From contig CABUOQ010000001.1 of assembly GCA_902493275.1 (NCBI GenBank), positions 28,639-92,638 on the forward strand: a stretch of 64,000 nt of DNA, written 5' to 3'. Origin of the DNA: an uncultured Bacillota bacterium. Its GTDB lineage: Bacteria; Bacillota_I; Bacilli_A; RFN20; CAG-449. Positions within the stretch are counted from its first letter, which is position 1; each line of letters opens with the position of its first letter. Shown here piece by piece: positions 4,152 to 54,570 of the stretch. Below the pieces are notes generated by a model, which had not been told where the DNA came from, did no database searches, and worked only from the letters and a program-made list of their open reading frames with translations. The position numbers were made by a program, and so were the translations under genes.

Positions 4152-4523
4152 ATGAAAAAATATTTACTTAACTTTAGTATGTCCTTTTTTTGCAGTTTAA
4201 TCGTCGGAATTATTGTCTGTCTAGTTTTAGCAATTTTAAAAAGCAATAATTCTTTAGATGATAATGCTTCAAATATTTGTTTAACCGTGTTAACAATTTT
4301 GCTCTTTTTTATCTTTGGATTTATCTTTTCTTTTGCCCAGAAAAAAAGAGGCATTATCAATGGTCTCTTTCTATCGGCAATATATTTAATTATTTATTTT
4401 ATTTTAAATGCACTTAACATATATCAATCGCCTTTATATATAACTATATCTCGAATAGCCTCAATCATGTTAGGTTCACTATTTGGAGTTAATTTAGCTT
4501 CTAAAGGTGATCGAACAAATTAA
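4152..4523 (+). CDS. Small polytopic membrane protein (hypothetical)
   Basis: 124 aa from the ATG at 4152 (AGGTGA SD upstream), with 3-4 hydrophobic helices. It is more plausible than the overlapping minus-strand ORF at 4139-4360. Confidence 0.35.
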
Positions 4524-5508
4524 CTTTTAAATGCTCGTATGCTTTTGGTGTCGCTACTCTTCCACGTGGAGATTTATTAATTAAGCCTAATTTTAAAAGA
4601 TAAGGCTCATAAACTTCTTCTAGATTTCGTACTTCTTCACCAATTGTTGAAGCAAGCGTTTCTAATCCAACTGGACCACCATTATATCTTTTTATTAGTG
4701 CGTTCAAATAACGGATATCGATTTCATCCAAACCTAAACCATCAATTTTTAATTTATTTAAGGCTGAAACTGTGAGGTTCTTATCAATAGAATTTAAATT
4801 CTCATAACTGGCAAAGTCACGAACACGACGATATATTCTATTAGCAATTCTCGGTGTACCGCGTGAGCGAATCGCAATTTCATTTGCGGATTCATCATCG
4901 ATAGGTAAGTTAAAAACTCGAGAAGTTCGTTTAACAATTCGCTTTAATTCATCAATCGTATAATAATTTAAGCGATTTACAATTCCAAAACGATCTCTTA
5001 ATGGTGAAGAAAGATCGCCAGGTTTTGTTGTTGCACCTACTAATGTGAATGGTTGAAGACGAATGGTAATATTACGAGCATCTTCATCATGACCAGATAA
5101 AAATGTTAGACGATAATCCTCCATCGCTTCATAAAGAATTTCTTCTACAACTCGTGGAAGACGATGAATCTCATCTATAAATAAGATATCACCTTCACCT
5201 AAAGTAGATAAAATAGCTGCTAAATCACCAGGTTTTTCAATGGAAGGACCATTTACTAGACGGATGTGTGTTCCCATTTCGTTAGCAATTACATATGCCA
5301 ATGTCGTTTTACCAAGTCCAGGTGGACCATATAATAGAATATGATCTAATGGTTCGTCACGATTTTTAGCCGCATGAATAAAAACGCGTAAATTATCTTT
5401 AAAATCCTCTTGACCAACATATTCTTCTAAAAATAATGGTCGTAAAGATACATCTACAGTCTCTTCATTTGTCTCTAATTTTGGGGTTAGTAAATTATCC
5501 ATAATCAT
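4501..5508 (-). CDS. ruvB: Holliday junction branch migration ATPase RuvB
   Basis: Walker [16 protein letters not shown] sensor, RuvB-like N- and C-terminal domains; 335 aa. Confidence 0.95.
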
Positions 5509-6083
5509 TTTCCTATTCTCTTTAATGCTTCATTAACAATCTCTGAAGCAGATAATACTGATGGAATCTTTTTTAAAACATCGTTAATTTCTGCGGATTT
5601 AAAGCCAAGATTTTTCAAGACATTTTTCGCATCTTCTTGCTCCTTATTTAAGGTGATGTCATCTGGTGCAGTCACACTTGTTAGCACCTCATTTTTAAGT
5701 GATCCATTTAAATCTAAAATAATTTGTGCAGCAGCTTTAGGACCAATGCCAGGCAATTTTTTTAAAGCCTTGACATTACCTTGCATAATCATTTTTACAA
5801 ATTCATCAATTGTTGTTCCCTTTAAAGCATTAACAGCTGTTTTAGGACCAATTCCCTTAACCGATATTAATTTAGTAAATATTTCCTTGCTTTTTAAATC
5901 TTTAAAGCCCACAAATAATTCATCATCATCTCTAACGATGTGCAAAGTATAAACCATGCATTCTTCGCCAACATGAAAATCGTTACGCGAAATAATTAAA
6001 AATTCGTAACCGACATCATGAACATCGATTACCGCTATATCTTCTTTAACTTCAACTATTTTTCCTTTTAAATAATAATACAT
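5505..6083 (-). CDS. ruvA: Holliday junction DNA helicase RuvA
   Basis: 192 aa, two HhH motifs (GIGPKTA..), overlaps the ruvB start by 4 nt. Confidence 0.9.
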
Positions 6084-10994: not shown

Positions 10995-13580
10995 TTATAA
11001 AATTTGTGATTTTTTATTTTTATATTCGTTTAATTGATTCTCATAATTTAAAAGCTTTTGTTTTTCCAAATTGATTTTCTGTTCTGGTGCTTTAGCGATA
11101 AATGCTGGATTATCTAACATCTTCTTACAACGAGCAACTTCTTTTTCTAATGCAGTAATTTTTTCATCTAACTTCTTAATTATTTCTTCTTTTGAAACAT
11201 TTTCTTCAATGAACATTTGCCCAATTGAATATAATGTAGATAGTGATTTTTTGTTTTCATCATCGATAATAATCTCTTCGGCGAATCCAAATCGTTTCAA
11301 ATAAGGAATAACTATATTAAAATCAAAATCACCATGATGATTTAAAAATAGACGAACTTTAGCATTAGGAGCTAAATTATTATCAACTTTGAAATTTCTG
11401 ATGTCCTTAATCATCTTGATAAGACCATCAACTTTTCTTTCATTTTCATCATCGAGATACTTATCTTCAATTTGCGGATAAGAATCAAGCATAATCGATT
11501 CTAAATGACCTGGTAAATTTAAATATATCTCTTCGGCGATAAATGGTGTATATGGATAAATCATTAAAATGATTGCTCTTAAAACCTTAAGCAAAACTTT
11601 CTTACTATTTAACGCATGTTCACCATTAAATTTTATCTTTGAAAATTCAACATACCATGAGGTGAAATCATCGTAAACAAAATCATATAAATGCGTTGAT
11701 GCATTAGCAAAATCATACTTTTCCATATTATCAGTAACATTGATAATTGTTTTTTGTAAACGGCTTAAGATATAGTGATCAAATATATCAAGTTCATCAT
11801 CATTTATTGGAAGTGATAAATCATCATTTTCAATATTCAATAAAATGAAACGCGATGCATTCCAAATTTTATTTAAATATGCTTCAGATGATTTAATTTT
11901 TTCTTCAGAATAACGTGTATCAAGTCCTGGCGAAGTAGAGGTGGTTAAAAAATATCTAAGTGCATCCACGCCATATTGATTAATCACGTCGATTGGATCG
12001 ATACCATTACCTAATGATTTTGACATCTTACGACCCTGACTATCACGTATTAAACCATGAATCAAGCATTTTTTAAATGGTGCTTGCTTGGTGAACTCTA
12101 ATCCTTGGAAAATCATTCTTGAAACCCAAAAGAAAATAATATCATATGCCGTAACCATCACATCGATAGGATAATAACGTTTTAATAATGCGCTGTCATC
12201 TGGCCATCCTAAGGTAGAAAAAGGCCAAAGTGCAGAAGAAAACCAAGTATCAAGAACATCTTCATCTTGAAGATAATTTTCCATATTTTCAGGCTCATTT
12301 TCACTTACAAGAACTTCACCAGTTTTTTTATTATAATATGCTGGAATACGATGTCCCCACCATAATTGACGAGATATACACCAGTCTTCACATCCTTCCA
12401 TCCAGGAAGTAAATATTTTATTGAAACGTTCAGGAATGAATGTGACTTTCTCTTCACTATCTTGATTTTTTAGCGATTGTTCCGCTAGAGGTTTCATCTT
12501 GACAAACCATTGTTTTTTTAACATTGGTTCGACTACCGCTCCACTTCTTTCGGAGTGTCCAACTTGGTGAACAATATCATCGATTTTAATTAAATTTCCT
12601 TCTTTTTTAATTTGTTCAACTAATTTATCCCGACATTCATAACGGTCTAGTCCCGCGTATTCTTTTCCACAACAATCAGCCATTGTCGCATCATCGTTGA
12701 TGACGATTGGATGAGGGAATTTATATTTTTGTCCAATAGTGAAATCATTTGGATCATGAGCTGGAGTACACTTCATAACTCCCGTTCCAAATTCAATATC
12801 GACATAATCATCTTCAATGATTGGAATTAATTCGTGATTAGCTGGGTTAATTACCTTTTTACCAACGACATTTTTATATCTTTCATCTTTAGAATTAACA
12901 ACAACGCATACATCGCCAAACATAGTTTCAGGACGCGTGGTTGCCACTGTTAAATATTTATCAGAATTCTCAATATAATATTTAAAATAATAGAACTTTC
13001 CTGGATCATCTTTGTGAATTACTTCGATATTACTCAATGCGGTTTTAAAAACCGGATCCCAATTTATGATTCTTTCACCACGATAAATAAGTCCTTTATT
13101 ATATAAAGTCACAAATACATGCTTAACTGCTTTAGATAATCCTTCATCTAAAGTAAATCTTTCTTTAGAATAATCAAGCGATAAACCCATCATCGCCCAT
13201 TGACTATGAATAGTGTCCGCGTATTCATGTTTCCAATTCCAAGCTTGTTCTAAAAATTTTTCTCGACCCAAATCATAACGAGATATTCCTTGACTTCTAA
13301 GACGCTGCTCAACTTTGGCTTGAGTAGCTATTCCAGCGTGATCCATACCTGGAATCCATAAAACATCGTATCCTTGCGCTTTTTTATAACGGGCAATTAT
13401 ATCTTGAATCGTCGTATTCCATGCATGTCCTAAATGAAGCATACCAGTAACATTAGGAGGTGGAATAACCATAGAAAATTTAGTTTTGGTTAAATCTCCA
13501 CTGAGAAAGTAACCTTTATCTTTCCAAGTTTGATACTTGCCATTTTCAACTTGTTGATGATCATAATGAGTGTCTAACAT
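10995..13580 (-). CDS. valS: Valine--tRNA ligase
   Basis: HIGH-type motif PPPNVTGMLHLGHA, KMSKS motif, C-terminal coiled coil; 861 aa. Confidence 0.97.
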   Translation of the reverse strand: MLDTHYDHQQVENGKYQTWKDKGYFLSGDLTKTKFSMVIPPPNVTGMLHLGHAWNTTIQDIIARYKKAQGYDVLWIPGMDHAGIATQAKVEQRLRSQGISRYDLGREKFLEQAWNWKHEYADTIHSQWAMMGLSLDYSKERFTLDEGLSKAVKHVFVTLYNKGLIYRGERIINWDPVFKTALSNIEVIHKDDPGKFYYFKYYIENSDKYLTVATTRPETMFGDVCVVVNSKDERYKNVVGKKVINPANHELIPIIEDDYVDIEFGTGVMKCTPAHDPNDFTIGQKYKFPHPIVINDDATMADCCGKEYAGLDRYECRDKLVEQIKKEGNLIKIDDIVHQVGHSERSGAVVEPMLKKQWFVKMKPLAEQSLKNQDSEEKVTFIPERFNKIFTSWMEGCEDWCISRQLWWGHRIPAYYNKKTGEVLVSENEPENMENYLQDEDVLDTWFSSALWPFSTLGWPDDSALLKRYYPIDVMVTAYDIIFFWVSRMIFQGLEFTKQAPFKKCLIHGLIRDSQGRKMSKSLGNGIDPIDVINQYGVDALRYFLTTSTSPGLDTRYSEEKIKSSEAYLNKIWNASRFILLNIENDDLSLPINDDELDIFDHYILSRLQKTIINVTDNMEKYDFANASTHLYDFVYDDFTSWYVEFSKIKFNGEHALNSKKVLLKVLRAIILMIYPYTPFIAEEIYLNLPGHLESIMLDSYPQIEDKYLDDENERKVDGLIKMIKDIRNFKVDNNLAPNAKVRLFLNHHGDFDFNIVIPYLKRFGFAEEIIIDDENKKSLSTLYSIGQMFIEENVSKEEIIKKLDEKITALEKEVARCKKMLDNPAFIAKAPEQKINLEKQKLLNYENQLNEYKNKKSQIL

Positions 13581-13870
13581 ATATTTCCCTCCTAAAAATA
13601 AAAAAACATCCAGTTAAGGACGTTAAACGCGGTACCACCTTAATTCGATTACAAAAAAATAATCGCACTTAATTGAACTTTAACGCAGTTAACGAAGATT
13701 CCTCTTATCTCAACAGCGACTATAATTAATTTCTTTAACTTCTTTTCACCAACCAGAAGCTCTCTTTTAAATTCCTTAATTAACCTCTGTCTCATCGACT
13801 AGAAATATATTAACTAATTTAAAAAGTTAAAGCAAGTTAATATTTCTAATTTCCTTATTAATGTTTTTGC
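13581..13870 (-). promoter_or_regulatory. T-box riboswitch leader of valS
   Basis: Conserved T-box sequence: the minus-strand RNA reads AAGGUGGUACCGCG (plus coordinates 13626-13639). Immediately downstream is a terminator hairpin ACGUCC..GGAUGU plus U7AU5. It is followed by an AGGAGG SD and the valS ATG. Confidence 0.7.
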
Positions 13871-30307: not shown

Positions 30308-30560
30308 ATTATTCCTCCTAAAAAATAAAAAGCGCCTTAGAAATTTCTAAGGACGCATCTAAGATACGCGGTACCACCTTAGTTCTAGCAATGCTAGCCC
30401 TCTTTAATTAAGTTTCTCCAAAGTGTATTTCATTAACTGATCAACAATGATTTTCACCATCCATCATCTCTCTAAATTCTTAATCAGATAACTACTTATC
30501 TTTTTCATAGAAACAATCTTTCGATTAATCTTATTTTAAAAGGAATTTTATCCTTAATCA
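30308..30560 (-). promoter_or_regulatory. T-box riboswitch leader of tyrS
   Basis: Minus-strand RNA carries AAGGUGGUACCGCG (plus 30365-30378). A terminator hairpin GCGUCCUUAG..CUAAGGCGC plus a U-run follows, then the SD and ATG. Confidence 0.7.
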
Positions 30561-42855: not shown

Positions 42856-44388
42856 CTACATTAATGGCGCAATCATTCTTAAAATATCCTTAAGTATGCG
42901 CTCATGAACTTTTAATTTACCATTTTTATCATTGATTTCCACGCCATCATTTTTAATGATATTTTCAAAATCCTGTTTCATTAATAAAATACTATCATCA
43001 TTATAAATCCAAGCCCCACATTCAAAATGATGTACAGTTGAGCGATAATCAAGATTAATTGTTCCAACTGTTGCTATTTTATCATCACAAACAAACATTT
43101 TAGCATGTATGAATCCTGGTTTATATTCATATATTCCAACTCCCTCTTTTATCAAATTTTGGTAATTGCTTTTTGTCATGATATATATCACTTTTTTATC
43201 TGGAATATGTGGAGTGATAATTTTTACATCGACTCCTCTTTTAGAAGCATTAATTATCGCTTCAAAAAATTCATAATCCATGATTAAATAAGGTGTAGTA
43301 ATATATAGATATTTTACCGCTTGATTAATGATATTTAAATAGACATTTTTACCAACATAATATTGATAAGTTGGAGAAGGGCCATCGCCATAAAGTGATA
43401 TGAAACTTTTATTTTCATAAATCTCATGCTTATTATTTAAGTATTTGCTTGGATCAATTTTCTTTAATGCACTGGAATTATAAAGTTTAATGAACATGAA
43501 TATCAATGAATCAACGCATTTACCTTTAACAAGCACGGCATTATCTTTCCATACTCCAAATGGATGTTTGATATTTACATATTCATCTGCGATATTAATT
43601 CCACCAGTAAATCCAACTTCACCATCGATGACAGTAATCTTACGATGATCACGATTATTATGAATCACAGATACTAATGGTTTAAAGGGTAAAAATTTAC
43701 ATGCGTTAATACCTTCATTTCTTAAATCATAAAAGAAACCATTTCGTACTTTTGAGATGCTTCCTACATCATCATACATAAAATATATTTCGACGCCTTC
43801 TTTAGCTTTTTTTAGTAATATCTCATGGATTGAATCAAGCATTGTACCGTATTCAACAATGAAATATTCCATAAAAATATATTTTTTAGCTTTTGATAAT
43901 TCTTCAAGCAATTTAGCGTGAAACTCTTCTCCAGTAGATAAATACTCAATATAGCAATCTTTATAAACTGGTAAATTGATTGTATTTTCAATATAACGCG
44001 CTTGTCCATAGGCATTTTCATTAGTGTTTTTTAATTGCTCAAAAGCATCCTCATTTACTAAGCAATAGGACTTAAGTTCTTTTGTTTCTTCTTCAAGTTT
44101 CTTACGATTTTTCTTCGACAAATTATAATTTCCAAACGCTCCATAAAGAGTAATTCCAAAAATAGGTAATATTAAAATAATGGCAATCCATGGTAATTTA
44201 AATGATGCTGGTCGATTCTTATTCAATATGACAAGAAACACGATAATTGCAATCACCGAAAAAGCATAATTAACCCATCTATAATATGATGCTAACCAGA
44301 ATGTGGTTGCACACAAAACTAGTACTTGCAATATAATTGCAATAAATACATAAAAAAATCGTGAAAAGAAAATTTTTAAAAATCTCAT
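42856..44388 (-). CDS. cls: Cardiolipin synthase
   Basis: Two N-terminal TM helices and two PLD HKD motifs (HRKITVIDGEVGFTGGINIAD and HAKMFVCDDKIATVGTINLD); 510 aa. Confidence 0.9.
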   Translation of the reverse strand: MRFLKIFFSRFFYVFIAIILQVLVLCATTFWLASYYRWVNYAFSVIAIIVFLVILNKNRPASFKLPWIAIILILPIFGITLYGAFGNYNLSKKNRKKLEEETKELKSYCLVNEDAFEQLKNTNENAYGQARYIENTINLPVYKDCYIEYLSTGEEFHAKLLEELSKAKKYIFMEYFIVEYGTMLDSIHEILLKKAKEGVEIYFMYDDVGSISKVRNGFFYDLRNEGINACKFLPFKPLVSVIHNNRDHRKITVIDGEVGFTGGINIADEYVNIKHPFGVWKDNAVLVKGKCVDSLIFMFIKLYNSSALKKIDPSKYLNNKHEIYENKSFISLYGDGPSPTYQYYVGKNVYLNIINQAVKYLYITTPYLIMDYEFFEAIINASKRGVDVKIITPHIPDKKVIYIMTKSNYQNLIKEGVGIYEYKPGFIHAKMFVCDDKIATVGTINLDYRSTVHHFECGAWIYNDDSILLMKQDFENIIKNDGVEINDKNGKLKVHERILKDILRMIAPLM

Positions 44389-44804: not shown

Positions 44805-45977
44805 ATGTCAATTTATGATGAATCGCTAAAACAACATTACCAATGGCATGGTAAAATTGAAACTCGTCCTCGTGTCGAAGTCGATACTAAGGAAAAATTA
44901 ATGCTCTGCTATACTCCTGGAGTTGCCCAAGCGTGCCTAGAAATTCAAAAAGATGTTAATAAGTCTTTTGAGTTAACTAGACGTTGGAATACTGTTGCCA
45001 TTATAACCGATGGTACTGCAATATTAGGTTTAGGAGATATCGGTCCAGAAGCAGGAATGCCAGTAATGGAAGGAAAAGCTGCTTTATTTAAAGCTTTTGG
45101 AAATGTTGATGCTTTTCCACTATGTTTAAAAACTAAAGATACCGAAGAAATTATTCGTACTATTCAAATTTTAAGTGGCTCATTTGGAGGAATTAATTTA
45201 GAAGATATTTCTGCTCCACGTTGCTTTGAGATTGAAAGACGATTAAAACAGACATGTGGAATTCCAGTTTTCCATGATGACCAACATGGAACTGCTATCG
45301 TAGTGGGTGCCGCAGTATTAAATGCCTTAAAAATTGTAAAAAAAGATATTGAAGATGTCGTTTGCGTTATTAATGGTGCTGGTGCCGCGGGAATCTCTAT
45401 CGGAAAATTCTTATTAAAGCTTGGCGTCAAGGATGTTATTTTCTGTGATCGTCAAGGAATTATTTATGAAGGAATGGAAAATTTAAATTCCGCTCATGAA
45501 GAAGTTTCACATATTTCCAATAAAAAACACTTAAAAGGATTATTAAAGGATGCCTTAGTGGGAGCTGATATCTTTGTTGGAGTTTCAGCACCAAGATTAG
45601 TGAATAAAGAAATGATTCAAACAATGAATCACGATGCAATAGTCTTCCCTCTAGCAAATCCAGTCCCTGAAATAACTCGTGAAGAAGCTATAGCAGGTGG
45701 AGCAAGAATTGTTGGCACTGGCTCTTCTGAACATCCAAATCAAATTAATAACGTATTAGTATTCCCTGGTGTTTTCCGTGGTGCGTTAGATGCTAGAGCC
45801 AAAGATATCAATATGGAAATGATGATTGCAGCTGCTAAGGCCATCGCTGGAATGATTAAAGATGAAGATTTAAATGAAGATAATATTATTCCTCTAGCCT
45901 TTGATAAGAAAGCTCATGAAGCTGTAGCTAAAGCAGTTAAGGAAGCCGCGTATAAAACTAAAGTAAATCAAATATAA
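44805..45977 (+). CDS. NAD(P)-dependent malic enzyme (short MaeB/MleS-type)
   Basis: 390 aa. ..ALVYTPGVA.. type N-terminus, dinucleotide-binding GAGAAG, conserved ..NQINNVLVFPG.. block. Confidence 0.88.
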   Translation: MSIYDESLKQHYQWHGKIETRPRVEVDTKEKLMLCYTPGVAQACLEIQKDVNKSFELTRRWNTVAIITDGTAILGLGDIGPEAGMPVMEGKAALFKAFGNVDAFPLCLKTKDTEEIIRTIQILSGSFGGINLEDISAPRCFEIERRLKQTCGIPVFHDDQHGTAIVVGAAVLNALKIVKKDIEDVVCVINGAGAAGISIGKFLLKLGVKDVIFCDRQGIIYEGMENLNSAHEEVSHISNKKHLKGLLKDALVGADIFVGVSAPRLVNKEMIQTMNHDAIVFPLANPVPEITREEAIAGGARIVGTGSSEHPNQINNVLVFPGVFRGALDARAKDINMEMMIAAAKAIAGMIKDEDLNEDNIIPLAFDKKAHEAVAKAVKEAAYKTKVNQI

Positions 45978-45986
45978 GGTGCAACA

Positions 45987-47198
45987 ATGAAAACAAGTAA
46001 AAAAATACTTATCAGTCCCTTAATCATATTATTAAGTATTGGTATTCTCGCGTGTTCAAATCAAAATGACACAATGGGATTTGATAATACAACTTACGAT
46101 ATTTCACTCAATAATGATAAAAGTGTAATCGCCACAATTAAGAAAAATAATAATGGTTATTCACTTGATATTACTGGAGAAGGTGATGTAAAAGATTTTT
46201 CAAAAAAGAATCGAACTCCATGGTATTCTATCTATAAAAAAATAAATGAAATATCTATTGGAAATGGAATAAAGAGTCTAGGAAATGAAGTATTTAATAA
46301 TATTAATCTTCCTTATCTTATAACTCCAGAAACGTTGACGAAAATAACTTCCACCTCCTTTTATGAAAATACGATTATATACTCCTATGCTGATGATATC
46401 GAAGGTGATGAGAACTATACCATTTATTACTATTCAGAAAATCAACCATCTTCTCAGGAATCTAACAATAAAAAATATTGGCATATCGTTGACGATCTCA
46501 TTACCATATGGCCATCAATCGAAGAGATAAAAACATTATTTGTCGGTAATAGTTTTACTTATTATAACGATATTCCTGCCCTTACTCAATCAATAGCTAA
46601 TGATTTAGGCTATAACTTAGTTTGTGAATCTGTTACTATGGGGTCTCATAATCTAGAACAATTTGCAAATAAAGATGATGAATATGGCAAAATAGTTTTT
46701 AATAAATTAACTGCAAATAATGATTATAAATATCTTATTCTACAAGAGCAATCAACTAGAAGTTACACTAAATATTCTAACTTTAAAAATGGTGCTACTA
46801 TCTTAAAACTTCTCGCAGATTCAACTCAAACTGACTGTACAACAAGGCTCTACTCCACTTGGGGATATCAATCTGCCGCGGATGACCTTAAAGTTACAAT
46901 ACCAGAAATGGAAGAAAAAGTGCGTGATGCTTATGACAGTTTAGCTCAAGAATTAAATGTTAATGTTCATTACGTTGGTAAAGCTTTTTCAAAAGTTTAC
47001 TTAGAATATAATTCACAAATAAATTTATATCACACTGATAATAAACATCCTTCATATGCGGGCAGTTATTTATCAGCCTTAATACATGTCGGAAGCATAC
47101 TTAAATGTGATATCCGTAACACACAATTTATAGGAGAACTAAAAGAGCCTATTGCTGAAATTCTCAAACAAGTAGCATATGAAGTTTTAATTAATTAA
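45987..47198 (+). CDS. Lipoprotein with a BspA-type LRR-like N-terminal region and an SGNH/GDSL-like hydrolase C-terminal domain
   Basis: Lipobox LAC. ..FVGNSFTYYNDIP.. (degenerate GDSx block I) and ..DNKHPSYAGSYL.. (block V DxxH). Confidence 0.45.
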   Translation: MKTSKKILISPLIILLSIGILACSNQNDTMGFDNTTYDISLNNDKSVIATIKKNNNGYSLDITGEGDVKDFSKKNRTPWYSIYKKINEISIGNGIKSLGNEVFNNINLPYLITPETLTKITSTSFYENTIIYSYADDIEGDENYTIYYYSENQPSSQESNNKKYWHIVDDLITIWPSIEEIKTLFVGNSFTYYNDIPALTQSIANDLGYNLVCESVTMGSHNLEQFANKDDEYGKIVFNKLTANNDYKYLILQEQSTRSYTKYSNFKNGATILKLLADSTQTDCTTRLYSTWGYQSAADDLKVTIPEMEEKVRDAYDSLAQELNVNVHYVGKAFSKVYLEYNSQINLYHTDNKHPSYAGSYLSALIHVGSILKCDIRNTQFIGELKEPIAEILKQVAYEVLIN

Positions 47199-47213
47199 AG
47201 AAAGGAAAAGACA

Positions 47214-49130
47214 ATGAAAAAAAAGAAATTAATACTTTTATTCAGTTCGATATTAACCCTTGCTGGAATTGCCGGATGTAATAGTAATATCACATCATCA
47301 AATTCACAAGAAGAATCAATTAGTATCGTCAATCATTACTTAGTTCATTTCTATGTCGAAGAAAAACTATATACAACAGTAAGAGTCGCAGAAGGTGAAA
47401 TAATTGACAAGGAGATTCCAACACCTACCAAAACCGGCTACCGCTTTGTTGGATGGCAACTAGCTAATGGAGTCAGTTTTGATATCTTAACTGAACAAAT
47501 AACTTCCTCACTTGATTTATTCGCATCATTTAAAAAAATTGAAGAGACAATCAATGTTGAAGATGTTAAAGATGCTAATAAAGAATACTATCTTGTCATT
47601 GGCTGGTATGGTAAGACTTCAACTTCTGGATTAGATAATACTGTTATGACTACATTCGCCAAAAATCTTGTAACTTATCTTAAAAAGATTGGCGCAACTA
47701 ATGATAATATAAATAACGTTAGCATTAGAAAATACTGTGGTGATGTTGAGCCAAATGACGTCGCTACTATGGGTGGATTAATCAATACTGATGGTGATTG
47801 TGATTTACTTCTTGGAATTGGTAAAAACATCACTTCTACTGGTGGAGTTGAAACTAAAGATCGTGTCGACACTATCACAATGGGGGAAAAGACGCGTTCA
47901 ATGGCATTAGTAAGTGAAAACGAAATTGCAGCTAAAGTGTATGATTACATTCAAAGATGCCAAGAGACAACAAACTCAATCTTTACTGCTGAATTTGATA
48001 TTTCCAAAACACCTGTTGACAATGGATCATCCGTTGATCCTGAACCTGATCCTGAACCAGGTGATGAAACTATTAATGTTGAAGATGTTAAAGATGCTAA
48101 TAAAGAATACTATCTTGTTATTGGTTGGTATGGTAAAACATCCACTTCTGGATTAGATAATACTGTTATGACTACGTTTGCTAATAATCTTGTCACCTAT
48201 TTAAAAGCAATCGGAGCAACGAATGAGAATATTAAAGGTATAAGTATTAGAAAATACTGTGGTGATGCTGAGCCAAATGATGTCGCTACAATGGGTGGAT
48301 TAATCAATACTGATGGTGATTGTGATTTACTTCTTGGAATTGGTAAAAACATCACTTCTACTGGTGGAGTTGAAACTAAAGATCGTGTCGACACTATCAC
48401 AATGGGGGAAAAGACGCGTTCAATGGCATTAGTAAGTGAAAACGAAATTGCAGCTAAAGTGTATGATTACATTCAAAGATGCCAAGAGACAGAAAACTCA
48501 ATATTTACCTCGACATTTGATATCGCAAAGACTCCAACATCTGAAGAAACAGTTGACCCAAATCCTTCATATGTTCCATTCGAAGGAACCTTAAATGTCG
48601 AAGATGTTAAAGATTCAAGTAAAGAATACTATCTTGTCATTGGTTGGTATGGTAAAACCTCTACTTCAGGTTTAGATAATACTGTCATGACCACGTTTGC
48701 TAATAATCTAATTAAATATATGAATGATATGAAAATTAATAAAGATGATACTGCGCGTATAAGTATTAGAAAATACTGTGGTGATGTTGAACCAAATGAT
48801 GTTGCTACTATGGGTGGATTAATTAATACCGATGGTGATTGTGATATTCTTCTTGGTGTTGGTAAAAACATCACTTCTACAGGTGGAGTTGAAACTAAAG
48901 ATCGTGTCGATACCATCAATATGGGTAGTAAAACGCGTTCAATGGCATTAGTAAGTGATAAAGAAATAGCAACCAAATTATTTAACTATGTTCAAAAATG
49001 TCAAGATGCGTCTAATTCAATCTTCACTCCTGAGTTTGATATATCAAAAACACCTACTGATGATGGAACTACTAGTAGCTTAAATAATCCGTTATTGCTA
49101 GATGAGTATATATTTACTTTGGGTTTATAA
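47214..49130 (+). CDS. Lipoprotein: N-terminal Listeria-Bacteroides (Flg_new) repeat followed by three tandem roughly 173-aa copies of an unrecognised domain
   Basis: Lipobox AGC. ..GYRFVGWQL..LDLFASF is Flg_new-like. Each repeat unit is INVEDVKDANKEYYLVIGWYGKTSTSGLD...CGDVEPNDVATMGGLINTDGDCDLLLGIGKNITSTGGVETKDRVDTITMGEKTRSMALVSENEIAAKVYDYIQRCQ. Confidence 0.75.
   Translation: MKKKKLILLFSSILTLAGIAGCNSNITSSNSQEESISIVNHYLVHFYVEEKLYTTVRVAEGEIIDKEIPTPTKTGYRFVGWQLANGVSFDILTEQITSSLDLFASFKKIEETINVEDVKDANKEYYLVIGWYGKTSTSGLDNTVMTTFAKNLVTYLKKIGATNDNINNVSIRKYCGDVEPNDVATMGGLINTDGDCDLLLGIGKNITSTGGVETKDRVDTITMGEKTRSMALVSENEIAAKVYDYIQRCQETTNSIFTAEFDISKTPVDNGSSVDPEPDPEPGDETINVEDVKDANKEYYLVIGWYGKTSTSGLDNTVMTTFANNLVTYLKAIGATNENIKGISIRKYCGDAEPNDVATMGGLINTDGDCDLLLGIGKNITSTGGVETKDRVDTITMGEKTRSMALVSENEIAAKVYDYIQRCQETENSIFTSTFDIAKTPTSEETVDPNPSYVPFEGTLNVEDVKDSSKEYYLVIGWYGKTSTSGLDNTVMTTFANNLIKYMNDMKINKDDTARISIRKYCGDVEPNDVATMGGLINTDGDCDILLGVGKNITSTGGVETKDRVDTINMGSKTRSMALVSDKEIATKLFNYVQKCQDASNSIFTPEFDISKTPTDDGTTSSLNNPLLLDEYIFTLGL
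47551..49100 (+). repeat. Three tandem roughly 519-bp coding repeats; copies 1 and 2 about 97% identical, copy 3 about 80%
   Basis: Period measured from the repeated string aatgttgaagatgttaaagatgctaataaagaatac at about 47562 and about 48081, and the diverged aatgtcgaagatgttaaagattcaagtaaagaatac at about 48594. The identical antisense ORFs in the track (47675-47878 and 48197-48400) follow from this DNA repeat. Confidence 0.85.
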
Positions 49131-49145
49131 AATTGAGGAGGATAT

Positions 49146-49907
49146 ATGAAAAACAAAAAGTTATTATTAATTCCTATCACACTCATGACTTTGATGGGAT
49201 GCTCAGCCGTCAAAGGACTAGAAAACGAAGTTACTGTAGTTTTCGAATATGATGGCGAGGTTATTAAAACTGATACCGTACACCAATTTAAAAATTGTCT
49301 GACTCCTTCCTTGAGCGAAGAACAAATTCCAATTGATAATGAATTCTTTGGTTGGACCTGGTTCAATCCAGATTCAATAAAAGCTACAGATGAAAATTTT
49401 GACAGCAAATATATTGAAAATAATGGCGTTGTTCATTATGACGAAATCAAATCATATACGCAAAATTCAGTTGTAGTTTTAAGACCTTTATTCATTGATA
49501 TTGCAGAAATTCCTGTACCAAATTATTATATTGCAATCGGCTGGTATGGTAAGACTTCAACTTCAGGCTTAGATAAAGCAAAAATGGATGCCTGGACTGA
49601 TGATTTAAAATCTTATTTACAAAGTGAAGGTGCAACTTCAGAAGATTTAGATAATATTATCGTGAAAGAATACTTAGGTGATGTTGCCACCGCCGGAGGA
49701 TTAGTTAATAAAGACCGCTTTATCGATGTCTTAGTCGGCTTTGGTAATAATATTGATTCAACAGGTGGTGTCGAAGTAATTGAAAAAGTCGGTGGCATTG
49801 AAATGGGTGGTAAAAGCCGTGTCATCGCAAGATTAACTGAAAAAGAAATTGCGATTAAAGTCTATAATTGGTTACAAACCGATGATGGAAATAAGGCATT
49901 GAAATAG
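49146..49907 (+). CDS. Lipoprotein carrying a single copy of the same roughly 173-aa domain as 47214-49130
   Basis: Lipobox LMGC. ..YYIAIGWYGKTSTSGLD..GDVATAGGLVNKDRFIDVLVGFGNNIDSTGGVEVIEKVGGIEMGGKSRVIARLTEKEIAIKVYNWLQ. Begins 16 nt after the upstream stop. Confidence 0.75.
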   Translation: MKNKKLLLIPITLMTLMGCSAVKGLENEVTVVFEYDGEVIKTDTVHQFKNCLTPSLSEEQIPIDNEFFGWTWFNPDSIKATDENFDSKYIENNGVVHYDEIKSYTQNSVVVLRPLFIDIAEIPVPNYYIAIGWYGKTSTSGLDKAKMDAWTDDLKSYLQSEGATSEDLDNIIVKEYLGDVATAGGLVNKDRFIDVLVGFGNNIDSTGGVEVIEKVGGIEMGGKSRVIARLTEKEIAIKVYNWLQTDDGNKALK

Positions 49908-49915
49908 GAGAAATT

Positions 49916-52336
49916 ATGAGAAAACGTAATAATTTAATTAAGGCAGGAACAATACTTGGATATGTTACTGCATTCATATACATATTAATAACCGCTCTAC
50001 TTTACTCACTTTCTAATTCATTATTTTGGCTTAGCCTTGTTCTTGCAGCCATATCACTTTATTCTTCATTATTTGCTGGAACATTAAGAGTTGAACTTGA
50101 AAACGATAAAATTGAAGGTAAAAATAAAACAAAATTTCTTGTTAATAGCATCGTCTCAATTGTATCACCAATTTCATTTGCATTATATTTAATAGTTTTA
50201 ATTAAAAAATATGATTCTGTAAATGATGATGTTAAAGTTTTTATTCCCGAAGAAAAAGAAAAAAATGTCACGACAAAAAAATGGTATAAAAAATCAAATT
50301 TTATTGTGTCATGTATCGGTCTTGGAACTCTTCTTCTTTCATCATTTGTCGCTAGAATTGGTGAAACAAGTGGATTTAAAGTTCAAACAACAGATTTCAC
50401 TTTAACTAAGGAATTGACAGATAAATTCAATACTGGTGAAGAAAACGCTCTAAATGGCAAAAACTTTACAATTAGTGATCCAGCATTAAAATATTCTGTT
50501 ACTGAATATCGACCAAAAACTGCAACAAAAGAAAATCCTGCACCAGTAGTATTTGTTATGCCAGGTTTTACTAGAACTAAAACAACTATGGCACAATATG
50601 CTATCGAACTTTCAAAAAGAGGTGTAGTAACTTATGTTATCGACCCAGGTTCACAAGGTGGTACAACCTATGCTGGATATGAGACAGACGATGAAGGTAA
50701 CAAAGACATGATTTCCTCTACAGTAGCGGCAAATGGACTAGATTATCTTGTTCAATATGTCTATAACGATACTGAGCGCTTCACTTACATCGACCGCGAT
50801 CGATTTGGTGCTGTTGGTCATTCAGCTGGCGGAGGAAATGTCGGTCAAGTTGCTCAAGATTTCGCTGGAAAAACTTATGAAGAATCAATTATTAAGTCAT
50901 TATATATCTCCGGATATATTAAACTAAGTTTAGCAAATCGTTTTAAAGATTTTAGATGTAATGCCGCGTTAAGTTATGCCTACTACGATGAAGGTGCATA
51001 TCGTTATCAAGAGAACATCAGCGCTTTTGAAGTAGTTGCTAAAAGATTCATCAATGAAGTAAATGATAATAATCTCGGTTATGAAGATGCCATTATCGAT
51101 TATGAATATGGTTCTATGGATAATGGTACATATCGTGTCATCCATCGTGAAATGACAAATCACTGCTTTGAAATGTATGATGGTCCATCAATTAGTAACA
51201 CTATCAACTTCTTTAGAAGAGCCTTTGAACTAGATACTAATTTAGACGATACCAGCCATACATGGCTTGTCAAAGAAGGCTTTAATGGTCTAGCTTTAGT
51301 GGGATCATTCATGTTTATCTTTGCTCTACTCGCTTTCATTATTGATATGGTTCCTTGGTTTAAATCCTTCAAAGTTGCATCTAATAGCGCAGCTGAATAT
51401 GAACGAAAACAAAGAATTAAATACGGGTATACTACCAGTTCGAGTGTCATTAATAAAGAGAATTCATCGATAATAAAGCCACAAAAGAAACACTTCTCAG
51501 ATAAAGTGATCTTCTGGACAACGACGGCTTTAACTGCAATTATCGCCTGCTTAGACTATATTCCTCTAGCAAGATTGACGATGGATTGGTTTCCAGATGC
51601 GGCTAATAACACCTACACTTTCTTCTTTCCTGCAAGAATGATGAACGCAGTTATGCTATGGGCATTATTTAATGGTAGTTTAGGATTTATCCTCTTATTA
51701 GGCGTTAAAGCTTTAGAAAACCTTTACTTTAAACTTACAAATCAACCAGATAGAATATCTTGGTATCGCTTTAAAGGAATGAAAGTTAAATGGATGGATT
51801 TATTAAAAACAGTTTGTCTAGCTTTATTCTCATTCTTATTATTCTATGGTTTATTACAAGTGATCTATTGGATATTCCATCAAGATTTCCGTTTTACATT
51901 AGTAAGCGCTTCTCCACTTCAACCTCGTTTCATAGTTACTTGGTTAATCTATCTGTTACCTTTCTTTGTCTTCTACCTTTCAAACTCTGTAAGAGTAAAT
52001 CTTTCAATTGCTACTGAAGGCTGGAGCGAATTTAAGGTCAACTTATTATCTGGAATTGCAAACTCTATCGGACTTGTATTTATCTTAGTCTTAAATTATT
52101 TCTGCTATTTTAAAACTGGTACTGTATTCTATGGATATTACTCACCAAATGATACAAGTGAAATGTGGTTATTCGTTAATATGGTATTTGGAATCATCCC
52201 AATGATGTTTATCTTACCAATCTTAAATAGATTCTGCTTCAAGAAAAGTGGTAATGTCTATCTTGGTGCGATGATTACTTGTATGATATTTATCATGATG
52301 AGTTTATCAGCATCAGTATCTTACATTCCAATGTAA
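49916..52336 (+). CDS. Polytopic membrane protein with an embedded alpha/beta-hydrolase domain (GxSxG nucleophile)
   Basis: 806 aa with about 4 N-terminal TM helices. Soluble domain has ..VVFVMPGFTRTKT.. and the nucleophile elbow GAVGHSAGGGNVG. About 8 C-terminal TM helices. Confidence 0.6.
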   Translation: MRKRNNLIKAGTILGYVTAFIYILITALLYSLSNSLFWLSLVLAAISLYSSLFAGTLRVELENDKIEGKNKTKFLVNSIVSIVSPISFALYLIVLIKKYDSVNDDVKVFIPEEKEKNVTTKKWYKKSNFIVSCIGLGTLLLSSFVARIGETSGFKVQTTDFTLTKELTDKFNTGEENALNGKNFTISDPALKYSVTEYRPKTATKENPAPVVFVMPGFTRTKTTMAQYAIELSKRGVVTYVIDPGSQGGTTYAGYETDDEGNKDMISSTVAANGLDYLVQYVYNDTERFTYIDRDRFGAVGHSAGGGNVGQVAQDFAGKTYEESIIKSLYISGYIKLSLANRFKDFRCNAALSYAYYDEGAYRYQENISAFEVVAKRFINEVNDNNLGYEDAIIDYEYGSMDNGTYRVIHREMTNHCFEMYDGPSISNTINFFRRAFELDTNLDDTSHTWLVKEGFNGLALVGSFMFIFALLAFIIDMVPWFKSFKVASNSAAEYERKQRIKYGYTTSSSVINKENSSIIKPQKKHFSDKVIFWTTTALTAIIACLDYIPLARLTMDWFPDAANNTYTFFFPARMMNAVMLWALFNGSLGFILLLGVKALENLYFKLTNQPDRISWYRFKGMKVKWMDLLKTVCLALFSFLLFYGLLQVIYWIFHQDFRFTLVSASPLQPRFIVTWLIYLLPFFVFYLSNSVRVNLSIATEGWSEFKVNLLSGIANSIGLVFILVLNYFCYFKTGTVFYGYYSPNDTSEMWLFVNMVFGIIPMMFILPILNRFCFKKSGNVYLGAMITCMIFIMMSLSASVSYIPM

Positions 52337-52405: not shown

Positions 52406-53287
52406 ATGAAAATTATACAAATGAAATATTTTCAAGCTGTTTGTAGATTCAATAATGTCTCTAAAGCAGCTCAATCATTAGGTGTTTCTCAACCGGCTAT
52501 CTCAAGTGCAATTAAAGAACTTGAGGATGAATTTGGTATTCATTTATTTATAAGAAACAATAATAAATTAGTTCTTTCTGAAGATGGAAAATACTTCTTT
52601 AATCATGTTAATAACCTCTTACGTGAAATTGAAGATATTGAAATTCAAATGAAAGATCGCGGTCAAAGATTGAAATCCATTACTATTGGTGTTCCTCCTA
52701 TCATTGGAACATTTATGTTTCCTAAATTGGTCAATGGATTTTTAAAAGAGAATCCTGATATTCAATGTTCAATTACTGAAACCGGTTCTTTAAAGGTATT
52801 AAATCATATCGAACGCGGAAGCATCGATTTAGGCATTATCACTTTTGATGAAACAATTGAAAAAAAATTCTCATATGTGGAATTAATCGATACTGAATTT
52901 GTTTTTGCTGTCAATCGTAGTCATCATTTCGCTAATAAAAAGAACATTCGCTTTGAGGATTTAGATAAAGAAGAAATTATTTTATATGCGATAGGTTCCT
53001 ATCAAGACCGCTTAATTACAAACAAAATTACTGAAAGCAATATCAAGCCTCATGTCTTTATGCATTCTTCTCAACTAGCGAGTATTCTTGAATGCTTAAA
53101 GATTCAAAATGTCGGCGCTTTTCTTCATAAAGAAATTGTGGATATGTATCCTTCGCTTGTCGGAATTCCTTTCGTGGAGCCAATAAAAGTTAAAGTTGGC
53201 ATCGTATATAATAAGGTTTCAGGATTGCTGTCATTACCGACTAAATTCGTTAATTATGCTAAAGCAATGTATAATAAAAAAGATTAA
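52406..53287 (+). CDS. LysR-family transcriptional regulator
   Basis: N-terminal wHTH ..KAAQSLGVSQPAISSAIKELE.. and C-terminal LysR substrate-binding fold; 293 aa. Confidence 0.9.
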   Translation: MKIIQMKYFQAVCRFNNVSKAAQSLGVSQPAISSAIKELEDEFGIHLFIRNNNKLVLSEDGKYFFNHVNNLLREIEDIEIQMKDRGQRLKSITIGVPPIIGTFMFPKLVNGFLKENPDIQCSITETGSLKVLNHIERGSIDLGIITFDETIEKKFSYVELIDTEFVFAVNRSHHFANKKNIRFEDLDKEEIILYAIGSYQDRLITNKITESNIKPHVFMHSSQLASILECLKIQNVGAFLHKEIVDMYPSLVGIPFVEPIKVKVGIVYNKVSGLLSLPTKFVNYAKAMYNKKD

Positions 53288-53406: not shown

Positions 53407-54570
53407 ATGAAAATAAGTGATGATATTTTTCAAATCGGCGTTAATGACCATGATATTGATTTATTTGAAGGACAATATAAAGTTCCATATGGAATGGCTT
53501 ATAATAGTTACCTTATCATGGATGAAAAAGTAGCCATTATGGATACAGTAGATAAAAATTTCACGACTGAATGGTTAAATAATATCCAAAAAACATTAAA
53601 TGATAAAACACCTGATTATTTAATTGTCCAACACATGGAGATGGATCACTCTAGCAATATAATGAATTTGTTGAATGTCTATCCGAACATTAAAGTCGTT
53701 GGAAATATCAAAACATTTTCAATGATTAAACAACTATTTAATATCGATATAAATAACAAGATAGTCGTTAATGATGGCGATACCATCTCATTAGGAAAAC
53801 ATCTATTACAATTTATTTTTGCGCCTATGGTTCATTGGCCTGAAGTTATGATTACCTATGATAATTATAATCAAGTTTTATTTTCTGCAGATGCATTTGG
53901 AAAATTTGGGGCACTAGATATCAAACAAGACTGGATAGATGAAGCTAGAAGATATTATATCGGTATCGTTGGTAAATATGGTTTACAAGTACAATCTTTA
54001 TTGAAAAAAATCTCTAAATTAGAAATTAACACGATATGTTCTTTACATGGACCAATTTTAAATAATAATCTTTCTTATTATATCTCTTTATATGATAAAT
54101 GGTCATCATATTTAATAGAAGAAGAAGGAATAACTATTGCCTATACTTCAATTTACGGAAATACCAAAGCTGCGGCTATATTACTTGAAGAAAAATTAAA
54201 AGCTCGCGGCTATAAAAATGTCATTTCATTTGATTTAGCGCGCGATGATATTCATGAAGCAATAGCCACTAGTTTTAGATTCTCTAAATTAGTTCTAGCC
54301 TCGCCAACATATAATACTGGATTATTCCCAATGATGTCTTATTTTATCGATGGACTAGTTGAACGCAATTTTCAAAAAAGATCAATTGCGATAATTGAAA
54401 ATGGCACTTGGGCTCCGATGGCTGCAAGAATTATCAAAGATAAACTTAGTAAATGTAAAGATTTAACTTTTATTGAGCCAATTGTAACCTTAAAAACCGC
54501 GATTAATAATAGTAGTGAAAAAGATATTGAAACTCTTTGTGATAATTTATGTGATGATTTATCATATTAA
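53407..54570 (+). CDS. Class A flavodiiron protein (FprA-type; metallo-beta-lactamase-like plus flavodoxin domains)
   Basis: Diiron H-x-E-x-D-H motif (VQHMEMDHSSN) and the flavodoxin FMN loop ..IAYTSIYGNTKAAA..; 387 aa. Confidence 0.85.
   Translation: MKISDDIFQIGVNDHDIDLFEGQYKVPYGMAYNSYLIMDEKVAIMDTVDKNFTTEWLNNIQKTLNDKTPDYLIVQHMEMDHSSNIMNLLNVYPNIKVVGNIKTFSMIKQLFNIDINNKIVVNDGDTISLGKHLLQFIFAPMVHWPEVMITYDNYNQVLFSADAFGKFGALDIKQDWIDEARRYYIGIVGKYGLQVQSLLKKISKLEINTICSLHGPILNNNLSYYISLYDKWSSYLIEEEGITIAYTSIYGNTKAAAILLEEKLKARGYKNVISFDLARDDIHEAIATSFRFSKLVLASPTYNTGLFPMMSYFIDGLVERNFQKRSIAIIENGTWAPMAARIIKDKLSKCKDLTFIEPIVTLKTAINNSSEKDIETLCDNLCDDLSY

Follow-up and report, generated by a model that had tools for sequence, protein, structure and literature searches.

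An unannotated repeat domain of predicted alpha/beta fold in lipoproteins of an uncultured Bacillota bacterium, and the gene module that surrounds it

The variable lipoproteins of Mollicutes (Vsa/Vlp) carry size-variable tandem repeats that are short and unstructured, and the known carbohydrate-binding modules (CBMs) are mostly beta-sandwiches. The present study examined a stretch of 64,000 nucleotides (nt) from an uncultured Bacillota bacterium (GenBank assembly GCA_902493275.1, contig CABUOQ010000001.1, positions 28,639 to 92,638 of the forward strand; GC content 29.9%), referred to here as the window, in which two adjacent lipoprotein genes, A and B, encode three tandem copies and one copy, respectively, of a unit of about 173 amino acids (aa). 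What defines the finding as new is a domain family that is confidently folded in prediction and has no named relative, together with a conserved five- to six-gene module around it.

Several described systems come close to this locus in one respect or another. Like the Vsa/Vlp-type lipoproteins, the product of gene A is predicted to be lipid-anchored and has tandem repeats that vary in number and are homogenised by recombination; its units, however, are 173-aa folded domains with purifying selection and a residue signature rather than short, low-complexity repeats, and no phase-variation switch was seen. CBM-like accessory modules, such as CBM26 and X25 in the amylases of gut Firmicutes, resemble the unit in occurring in variable tandem copies and in being appended to catalytic domains, and the unit itself co-occurs with CBM26, X25, SLH, LRR_5 and Flg_new. 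It differs from them in its alpha/beta architecture and in a binding role that is predicted, and most unit-bearing proteins are stand-alone lipoproteins without a catalytic domain. The lobe of a solute-binding protein (LivJ type, 4n0q/1usg; Peripla_BP_6) shares with the unit a three-layer alpha/beta arrangement with a beta-alpha-beta-alpha-beta core, an extracytoplasmic location and, often, a lipoprotein anchor. In contrast to such proteins, the unit has just one domain, ~140 residues long, lacks a second lobe and a hinge as well as cognate ABC, TRAP or TTT genes, forms tandem arrays, and has a sequence signal limited to one sub-threshold match to SBP_bac_11. The N-terminal domain of gene A does belong to the InlB B-repeat or Listeria-Bacteroides repeat proteins (PF09479, TIGR02543), but that name fits only ~65 N-terminal residues, and the 173-aa unit is unrelated. 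DUF4886 is a constant partner of the unit, encoded by the upstream gene in the window and fused to the unit elsewhere, but is a different domain; it is an SGNH-clan family (PF16227) without known function (PMC9487903).

The repeat unit, its family and its predicted fold

A sequence-only reading of this DNA had described an unrecognised domain present three times in tandem in one lipoprotein and once in the next. Alignment and a hidden Markov model (HMM) of the family confirm this layout: on a six-frame translation of the whole window the HMM detected exactly four copies, three in A and one in B, and no others, with per-unit E-values of 1e-53 to 1e-55. The units were delimited by repeat finding and direct alignment. 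Tandem Repeats Finder, with its maximum period of 500, reported no repeat in the array because the unit period is longer than this, the start-to-start distances being 522 and 519 nt. The two genes, the three units of gene A and a pair of exactly matching tracts within them are located as follows.

47214 to 49130, plus strand: gene A, 638-aa lipoprotein (open reading frame, TIGR02543 match, three HMM domains)
47544 to 48065, plus strand: unit 1, aa 111-284, folded core at about aa 127-262, then a linker rich in Pro, Asp and Glu (alignment, HMM, structural model)
48066 to 48584, plus strand: unit 2, aa 285-457 (alignment, HMM)
48585 to 49103, plus strand: unit 3, aa 458-630 (alignment, HMM)
47769 to 47969, plus strand: unit-1 arm of the exact 201-nt tract, identical to 48291-48491, a gene-conversion patch
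48291 to 48491, plus strand: unit-2 arm of the exact 201-nt tract, identical to 47769-47969
49146 to 49907, plus strand: gene B, 253-aa lipoprotein (open reading frame, one HMM domain)

Gene A begins with a signal peptide and the lipobox LAGIAG-C (aa 1-22), followed at aa 44-109 by the Listeria-Bacteroides/InlB B-repeat, which scores 24.0 bits on TIGR02543 (cut-off 20.95). On the corresponding Pfam family PF09479 (Flg_new) it reaches 21.7 (E 2e-4) and stays under the gathering score (27), which its homologues clearly exceed at 36-93 bits. Linkers rich in Pro, Asp and Glu join the units. Gene B has the lipobox TLMG-C and one diverged unit at about aa 120-253 (nt 49503-49904) with 43% protein identity to unit 1. 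Its N-terminal region is probably a divergent B-repeat-like domain, as suggested by an hhalign comparison with the N-terminus of gene A (probability 51%, E 1.5e-4). Lipidation is predicted for A, B and a 403-aa protein encoded upstream, all of which show the pattern [LVI][ASTVI][GAS]C after a signal peptide. Three open reading frames antisense to the units (67-115 aa; minus strand, 47675-47878, 48197-48400 and 48629-48976) have near-identical translations and are opposite-strand shadows of the repeat, not evidence of genes.

No known family was recovered for the unit. The best Pfam match of single units had an E-value of 0.031, with nothing at the curated cut-off; NCBIfam returned nothing over the unit region; and when 55 diverse units were scanned against Pfam at E ≤ 1, no family was matched by more than three of the 55. 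Neither a single unit nor the 55-sequence profile found a real relative among PDB sequences; the profile matches to designed helical-repeat proteins were spurious, with one amphipathic helix matched repeatedly. LIF-R_Ig-like (PF21177) was likewise rejected as a false positive. The whole protein scores 33.1 against a gathering score of 27, but a single unit reaches 15.1 bits (E 0.031), and the total is inflated because three weak per-unit matches sum; moreover, the matched stretch is the b3-hairpin-a3 part of the alpha/beta model described below, which is incompatible with an Ig-like beta-sandwich. The case of PF21177 on gene A illustrates how repeats can push whole-protein profile scores over threshold. 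Relatives are named at NCBI either 'InlB B-repeat-containing protein', after the N-terminal domain, or 'hypothetical protein', and a literature search found nothing on the unit domain. The description of the domain as unrecognised therefore stands, there being no Pfam, NCBIfam or PDB-sequence match; the confident match to a known family that would have spoken against it was searched for and did not appear.

HMMER, run exhaustively against 1.84 billion representatives, identified 230 proteins at E ≤ 1e-3, including 179 at E ≤ 1e-10; it was used in place of a k-mer-indexed protein search with one unit, which had returned three matches, all to one protein. Among the best 153 relatives, a stricter HMM count gave 1-5 units per protein (a single unit in 60 of the 153), a lipobox was present in 117, and the first unit typically starts at residue ~110-120, after the B-repeat. 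Nine GTDB species representatives carry the unit, all of them uncultured 'Mollicutes', 'Bacilli' or similar metagenome-assembled genomes (MAGs) from gut or rumen. As judged from these profile searches and from the substitution rates given below, the unit is shown to be a real, narrow and unannotated domain family under purifying selection.

An AlphaFold2 model of the unit, based on a 55-sequence alignment and covering 157 residues, had a predicted local distance difference test score (pLDDT) of 97 and a predicted template modelling score (pTM) of 0.92. The model comprises strand b1 (17-22), helix a1 (32-48), b2 (59-64), a2 (73-83) and b3 (88-92), followed by a long Gly/Ser/Thr-rich loop, a hairpin of b4 (106-113) and b5 (116-122), and a3 (127-140). 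On this model, the unit is most likely an autonomously folding extracytoplasmic alpha/beta domain with a core of about 135-145 residues, consisting of three parallel strands, a hairpin and three helices, and the Rossmann-like alternation of strands and helices guessed from sequence fits it. When the unit was compared by Foldseek with PDB structures and with viral models, no match reached E < 0.001; the top neighbour was one lobe of 4n0q, a binding protein of LivJ type (E 0.04, probability 0.84, TMq 0.35).

Conserved positions of the unit are W21, Y22, T27, S28, G29, R62, Y64, D85, D87, G91, N95, G114 and R118. Retention among 229 units is near complete for R118 (228) and G91 (226) and high for W21 (217). 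A conserved Cys, as the sequence-only reading had supposed, was not found: C65 is present in three of 55 units, Val predominates at position 86, C139 varies, and no His, Cys or Glu is conserved across units. Most conserved residues lie in the loops following b1, b2 or b3 or in the hairpin. In doubly wound folds the loops after strands are the usual ligand site. Comparison by eye with the HAD, Toprim, vWA-MIDAS and GT-A DxD motifs suggested no assignment, because the Asp pair comes before b3 instead of after a strand, nor does any other motif fit.

Gene conversion and unit number in the array

The three units of gene A are less alike than had been claimed. Units 1 and 2 share 85-87% DNA and 87% protein identity, units 1 and 3 share 76-77% and 72%, and units 2 and 3 share 77-78% and 70%. 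A value of 97% DNA identity for copies 1 and 2, given in the sequence-only reading, is wrong under global alignment, and 'near-identical' does not describe copies with 70-87% protein identity that are homogenised only patchwise. Nor is the duplication very recent: unit synonymous divergence (dS) is 0.6-0.8 and the ratio of non-synonymous to synonymous divergence (dN/dS) of unit cores is 0.07-0.23, which indicates old duplicates under purifying selection.

Superimposed on this divergence is the 201-nt tract that is identical between units 1 and 2. Its flanks have ~78% identity (dS ~0.8), and the probability of an exact run of 201 nt at 78% identity is ~2e-22. Among the strains compared, the tract is exact in the window only. 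Strain L012 (GCA_964314975.1) is 99% identical to the window over 10 kb, but in this region its unit 2 differs from unit 1, so that constraint can be rejected as the cause of the tract, and matches unit 3 exactly over stretches of 67 and 50 nt. Mosaic tracts thus vary among strains that are 97-99% identical. Read from these alignments, the exact tracts are strain-specific gene-conversion patches, in support of the gene conversion suggested earlier. The 646-aa allele of L012 is also longer by eight residues, KPGPDDET, inserted in the linker that joins the B-repeat to unit 1 (at ~6330, corresponding to ~47540 in the window).

Repeat-number variation, which had likewise been anticipated, is supported by the existence of a two-unit allele. 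Within the cluster of gene A at 90% identity there are three-unit forms of 638 and 646 aa and a two-unit form of 473 aa, the latter being unit 1 joined to a chimera of units 2 and 3. Its junction lies inside the 67-nt tract common to units 2 and 3 of an L012-like parent and matches the expected product of unequal recombination. The two-unit allele is present in two ENA assemblies, L010 and L011, which are 100% identical to each other and are therefore counted as one strain; it could conceivably be a collapse of the short-read assembly. Unit number thus probably differs between strains (three versus two). Across species, gene A orthologues have one, two, three or four units, and some lineages have a B-type gene with four to six units. 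The strain and species comparisons together show an array that evolves through intragenic gene conversion and the gain and loss of whole units, and it constitutes a clean natural case of these processes in a folded-domain repeat. For genes of this kind in short-read MAGs, both the number of copies and the precise sequence should be confirmed with long reads.

The conserved module and its partner proteins

Genes A and B belong to a block of five plus-strand genes (44805-52336) with intergenic gaps of 9, 15, 15 and 8 nt and a ribosome-binding-site-like sequence upstream of each; a LysR gene begins 69 nt after the last of them. The operon context reported by the sequence-only reading, with malic enzyme upstream and a membrane hydrolase downstream, was correct, but the gene for the 403-aa lipoprotein (45987-47198), situated between those for malic enzyme and A, had been overlooked. 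Besides A and B, the genes concerned are the following.

44805 to 45977, plus strand: malic enzyme, 390 aa, first gene of the block (Pfam malic and Malic_M)
45987 to 47198, plus strand: 403-aa lipoprotein with leucine-rich repeats (LRR) and a predicted SGNH domain of DUF4886 type (lipobox GILA-C; LRR_5; homology to DUF4886 carriers)
49916 to 52336, plus strand: 806-aa polytopic membrane protein, predicted hydrolase (hydropathy, weak Pfam PETase match, PDB cutinases/lipases)
52406 to 53287, plus strand: LysR-type regulator, divergent from the module in most related loci

A module of LysR, malic enzyme, LRR+SGNH lipoprotein, A-type lipoprotein (Flg_new plus units), B-type single-unit lipoprotein and a membrane hydrolase of ~800 aa was found at 17 of the 19 related loci. 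LysR is usually transcribed divergently from it. Malic enzyme adjoins the module in almost every related locus, at its 5' or 3' end, the end differing between loci L004, L007, L008 and L017 on the one hand and the window, L001, L012 and L013 on the other. At L019 a DcuC C4-dicarboxylate carrier (4197-5633) lies directly upstream of the module; with the adjacency of malic enzyme, it hints at a link to dicarboxylate metabolism. Across the loci, identity to the window proteins is 28-50% for A, 39-52% for the SGNH lipoprotein, 40-61% for B, 51-69% for the hydrolase and 62-84% for malic enzyme.

The 403-aa lipoprotein has an N-terminal LRR of BspA type (LRR_5, E 5e-6) and a C-terminal SGNH-like domain with the motifs GNSF (block I, aa 187-190) and D-N-K-H (block V, aa 351-354); its PDB sequence matches are 4h09 (LRR) and 4s1p. 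Over 391 aa it is 40% identical (E 3e-90) to P0130/P0181, which adds one C-terminal unit, and P0130 scores on DUF4886. With the DUF4886 domain of P0132, an SLH-CBM26-DUF4886-unit protein, it shares 36% identity. By these motifs and homologies it is a predicted esterase of the SGNH/DUF4886 type, yet itself falls below the Pfam threshold for DUF4886. The 806-aa protein consists of about four N-terminal transmembrane helices, a putative cutinase/PETase-like alpha/beta-hydrolase domain with a GHSAGG elbow and a C-terminal domain of about 8-9 transmembrane helices. Residues 198-315 align to PDB cutinases, lipases and PETases with E-values of 3e-5 and weaker, and the Pfam PETase match is weak (20.4 against a threshold of 28); many of its 902 homologues, all unnamed, have a precomputed PF12740 match. 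No part of the module is more conserved than the C-terminal transmembrane domain (~360 aa), which has a mean column identity of 67% and many invariant polar residues, as in HQDFRF, SNSxRVN and TGTVFYGYYS. An AlphaFold2 model of this domain, built with a transporter or acyltransferase in mind and of moderate quality (pLDDT 70), had no PDB match. In several related contigs the membrane-hydrolase gene is split into two open reading frames with no N runs (L010 3104-5523, L011 3084-5503, L002 3192-5088, L003 5503-7920); these splits, including that in the strain with the two-unit allele, could be frameshifts, pseudogenes or sequencing errors. For malic enzyme, the match to the NCBIfam NADP-dependent subfamily lies below cut-off, and LysR could not be placed in a characterised effector class, its top match, CidR, being far below cut-off.

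Domain fusions connect the unit to the same partners. DUF4886 is fused N-terminal to the unit in P0130, P0132, P0090, P0148, P0153 and P0107. Architectures of unit-bearing proteins include LRR_5 followed by alpha-amylase, three CBM26, DUF4886 and the unit; a C-terminal DUF4886-unit cassette in an SLH/CBM26 protein; B-repeat, GLUG and units; units followed by Exo_endo_phos; and one with an X25 module. Of these partners, Flg_new, LRR_5, GLUG and X25 are modules of surface or adhesion proteins, and Exo_endo_phos is an enzyme. Gene neighbourhood and fusions together show that the unit is genetically coupled to the LRR+SGNH lipoprotein and to the membrane cutinase-like hydrolase, that is, to two predicted esterases.

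A scan for promoters and terminators gave no signal above shuffles in the AT-rich DNA of the window, and no riboswitch was detected near the operon in an Rfam scan. On either side of the block lie genes for a cardiolipin synthase (TIGR04265, 330 bits; 42856-44388, minus strand) and a flavodiiron/flavorubredoxin-like protein (53407-54570, plus strand), and both neighbours are also present in strain L012. Elsewhere in the window two T-box leaders exceed the Rfam gathering score (13613-13804 and 30346-30517, minus strand; 102.8 and 104.7 bits), upstream of minus-strand genes ending at 13580 and 30307.

Candidate roles of the unit

The lipoprotein and surface-module context shows a unit that is, by prediction, exposed at the cell surface. 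Our preferred reading, held tentatively, is that it is a non-catalytic binding or targeting module serving the co-encoded predicted esterases. By capturing or positioning a substrate or surface polymer it would assist these enzymes, tandem copies would add avidity, and the esterase products may feed malic enzyme under LysR control. The signature of Arg, Ser, Thr, Asn and aromatic residues suggests a ligand that is polar or anionic, such as a glycan, a carboxylate or a phosphate-bearing compound. Several points weigh against this interpretation. A binding role is drawn from architecture and analogy, and the clustering of the conserved residues into one site is inferred from the order of secondary-structure elements. 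D85 and D87 precede b3 and may be structural or metal-binding rather than ligand-binding, and an alpha/beta fold with invariant Asp and Arg could be catalytic. The fusion partners also differ in substrate (starch, esters, phosphoesters), which speaks against a single substrate-specific binding function and fits a more general role, for example in retention at the surface, in oligomerisation or in docking to the membrane hydrolase.

That the repeat itself is an assembly artefact or a chance similarity is scarcely credible. The relatives of the window come from short-read metagenome assemblies, in which repeats can be handled wrongly, and the two-unit allele represents one strain; but the units differ by 13-23% and have distinct linkers, which makes a duplicated read pile impossible, and L012, P0155 and P0157 independently reproduce the three-unit gene. 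Related species have the same gene with one to four units, and each unit is recognised by the HMM on its own at the E-values given above. An assembly artefact is thus excluded for the three-unit structure. Another view is that the array serves mainly as a surface coat of variable size and sequence, in which, as in the variable lipoproteins of Mollicutes, repeat recombination evades antibodies or phages and the fold is only a scaffold. Tandem units on a lipoprotein, conversion mosaics that differ among closely related strains, three- and two-unit alleles in one cluster, the range of one to four units across species and the rapid evolution of A, which changes faster than any other gene of the module (28-50% identity, compared with 51-69% for the hydrolase), are all in keeping with it. 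We nevertheless regard it as unlikely. Purifying selection acts on the unit cores, and almost every one of the 229 units retains the polar and aromatic signature; protein B, with its single unit, shows good conservation; fusions of the unit to enzymes occur in walled Firmicutes as well; and the variable repeats of Mollicutes are short and unstructured in contrast to a folded domain of 140 residues. Antigenic or phage-driven variation is compatible with a binding module as a secondary layer, not as its replacement.

The fold itself suggests two other functions. A reduced, single-lobed relative of solute-binding proteins would pass a solute, for example a C4-dicarboxylate released by the esterases, to the transmembrane domain of the 806-aa protein for uptake and so feed malic enzyme. 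The top Foldseek neighbours are indeed LivJ-type and other solute-binding or LacI lobes, one unit of P0153 weakly matches SBP_bac_11 (E 3e-4, below gathering score), the context is that of extracytoplasmic lipoproteins, malic enzyme stays adjacent though switching ends, with DcuC adjacent in L019, and the transmembrane domain shows strong conservation, including numerous invariant polar residues. Such a receptor is nonetheless distinctly unlikely: the 157-residue model has one lobe only and no hinge, the similarity scores are not significant, the module has no ABC, TRAP or TTT components across the 19 loci, the model of the transmembrane domain matches no PDB transporter, and arrays of at least three copies and fusion to amylase and SLH are atypical of solute receptors. 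The remaining alternative is an enzyme, for example a hydrolase or transferase using the Asp pair with Arg, Ser and Thr, duplicated for higher activity. Doubly wound alpha/beta folds are typical of enzymes, and the invariant or near-invariant D85, D87, R62, R118, T27, S28 and N95 are mostly in loops by strand ends. However, the lack of any conserved His, Cys or Glu, of a sequence or structural match to any enzyme family, and the tandem arrays and appendage to catalytic domains (amylase, SGNH, EEP) that are typical of accessory modules make catalysis improbable.

Beyond the binding module that we prefer, a more speculative and quite improbable extension would make the locus a new surface system, in which the unit is a single-lobe fold capturing an esterified substrate (an ester of malate or another hydroxy acid, a polyester or an acylated glycan), the two esterases release the product, and the transmembrane domain imports it for malic enzyme under LysR, all in uncultured, genome-reduced gut Bacilli. 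The genes described here come from gut lineages that appear in this study only as MAGs and whose surface proteins are largely unannotated. For these lineages the domain family gives a handle on the interaction with substrate or host, and it is a candidate for Pfam curation, structure determination and ligand screening.

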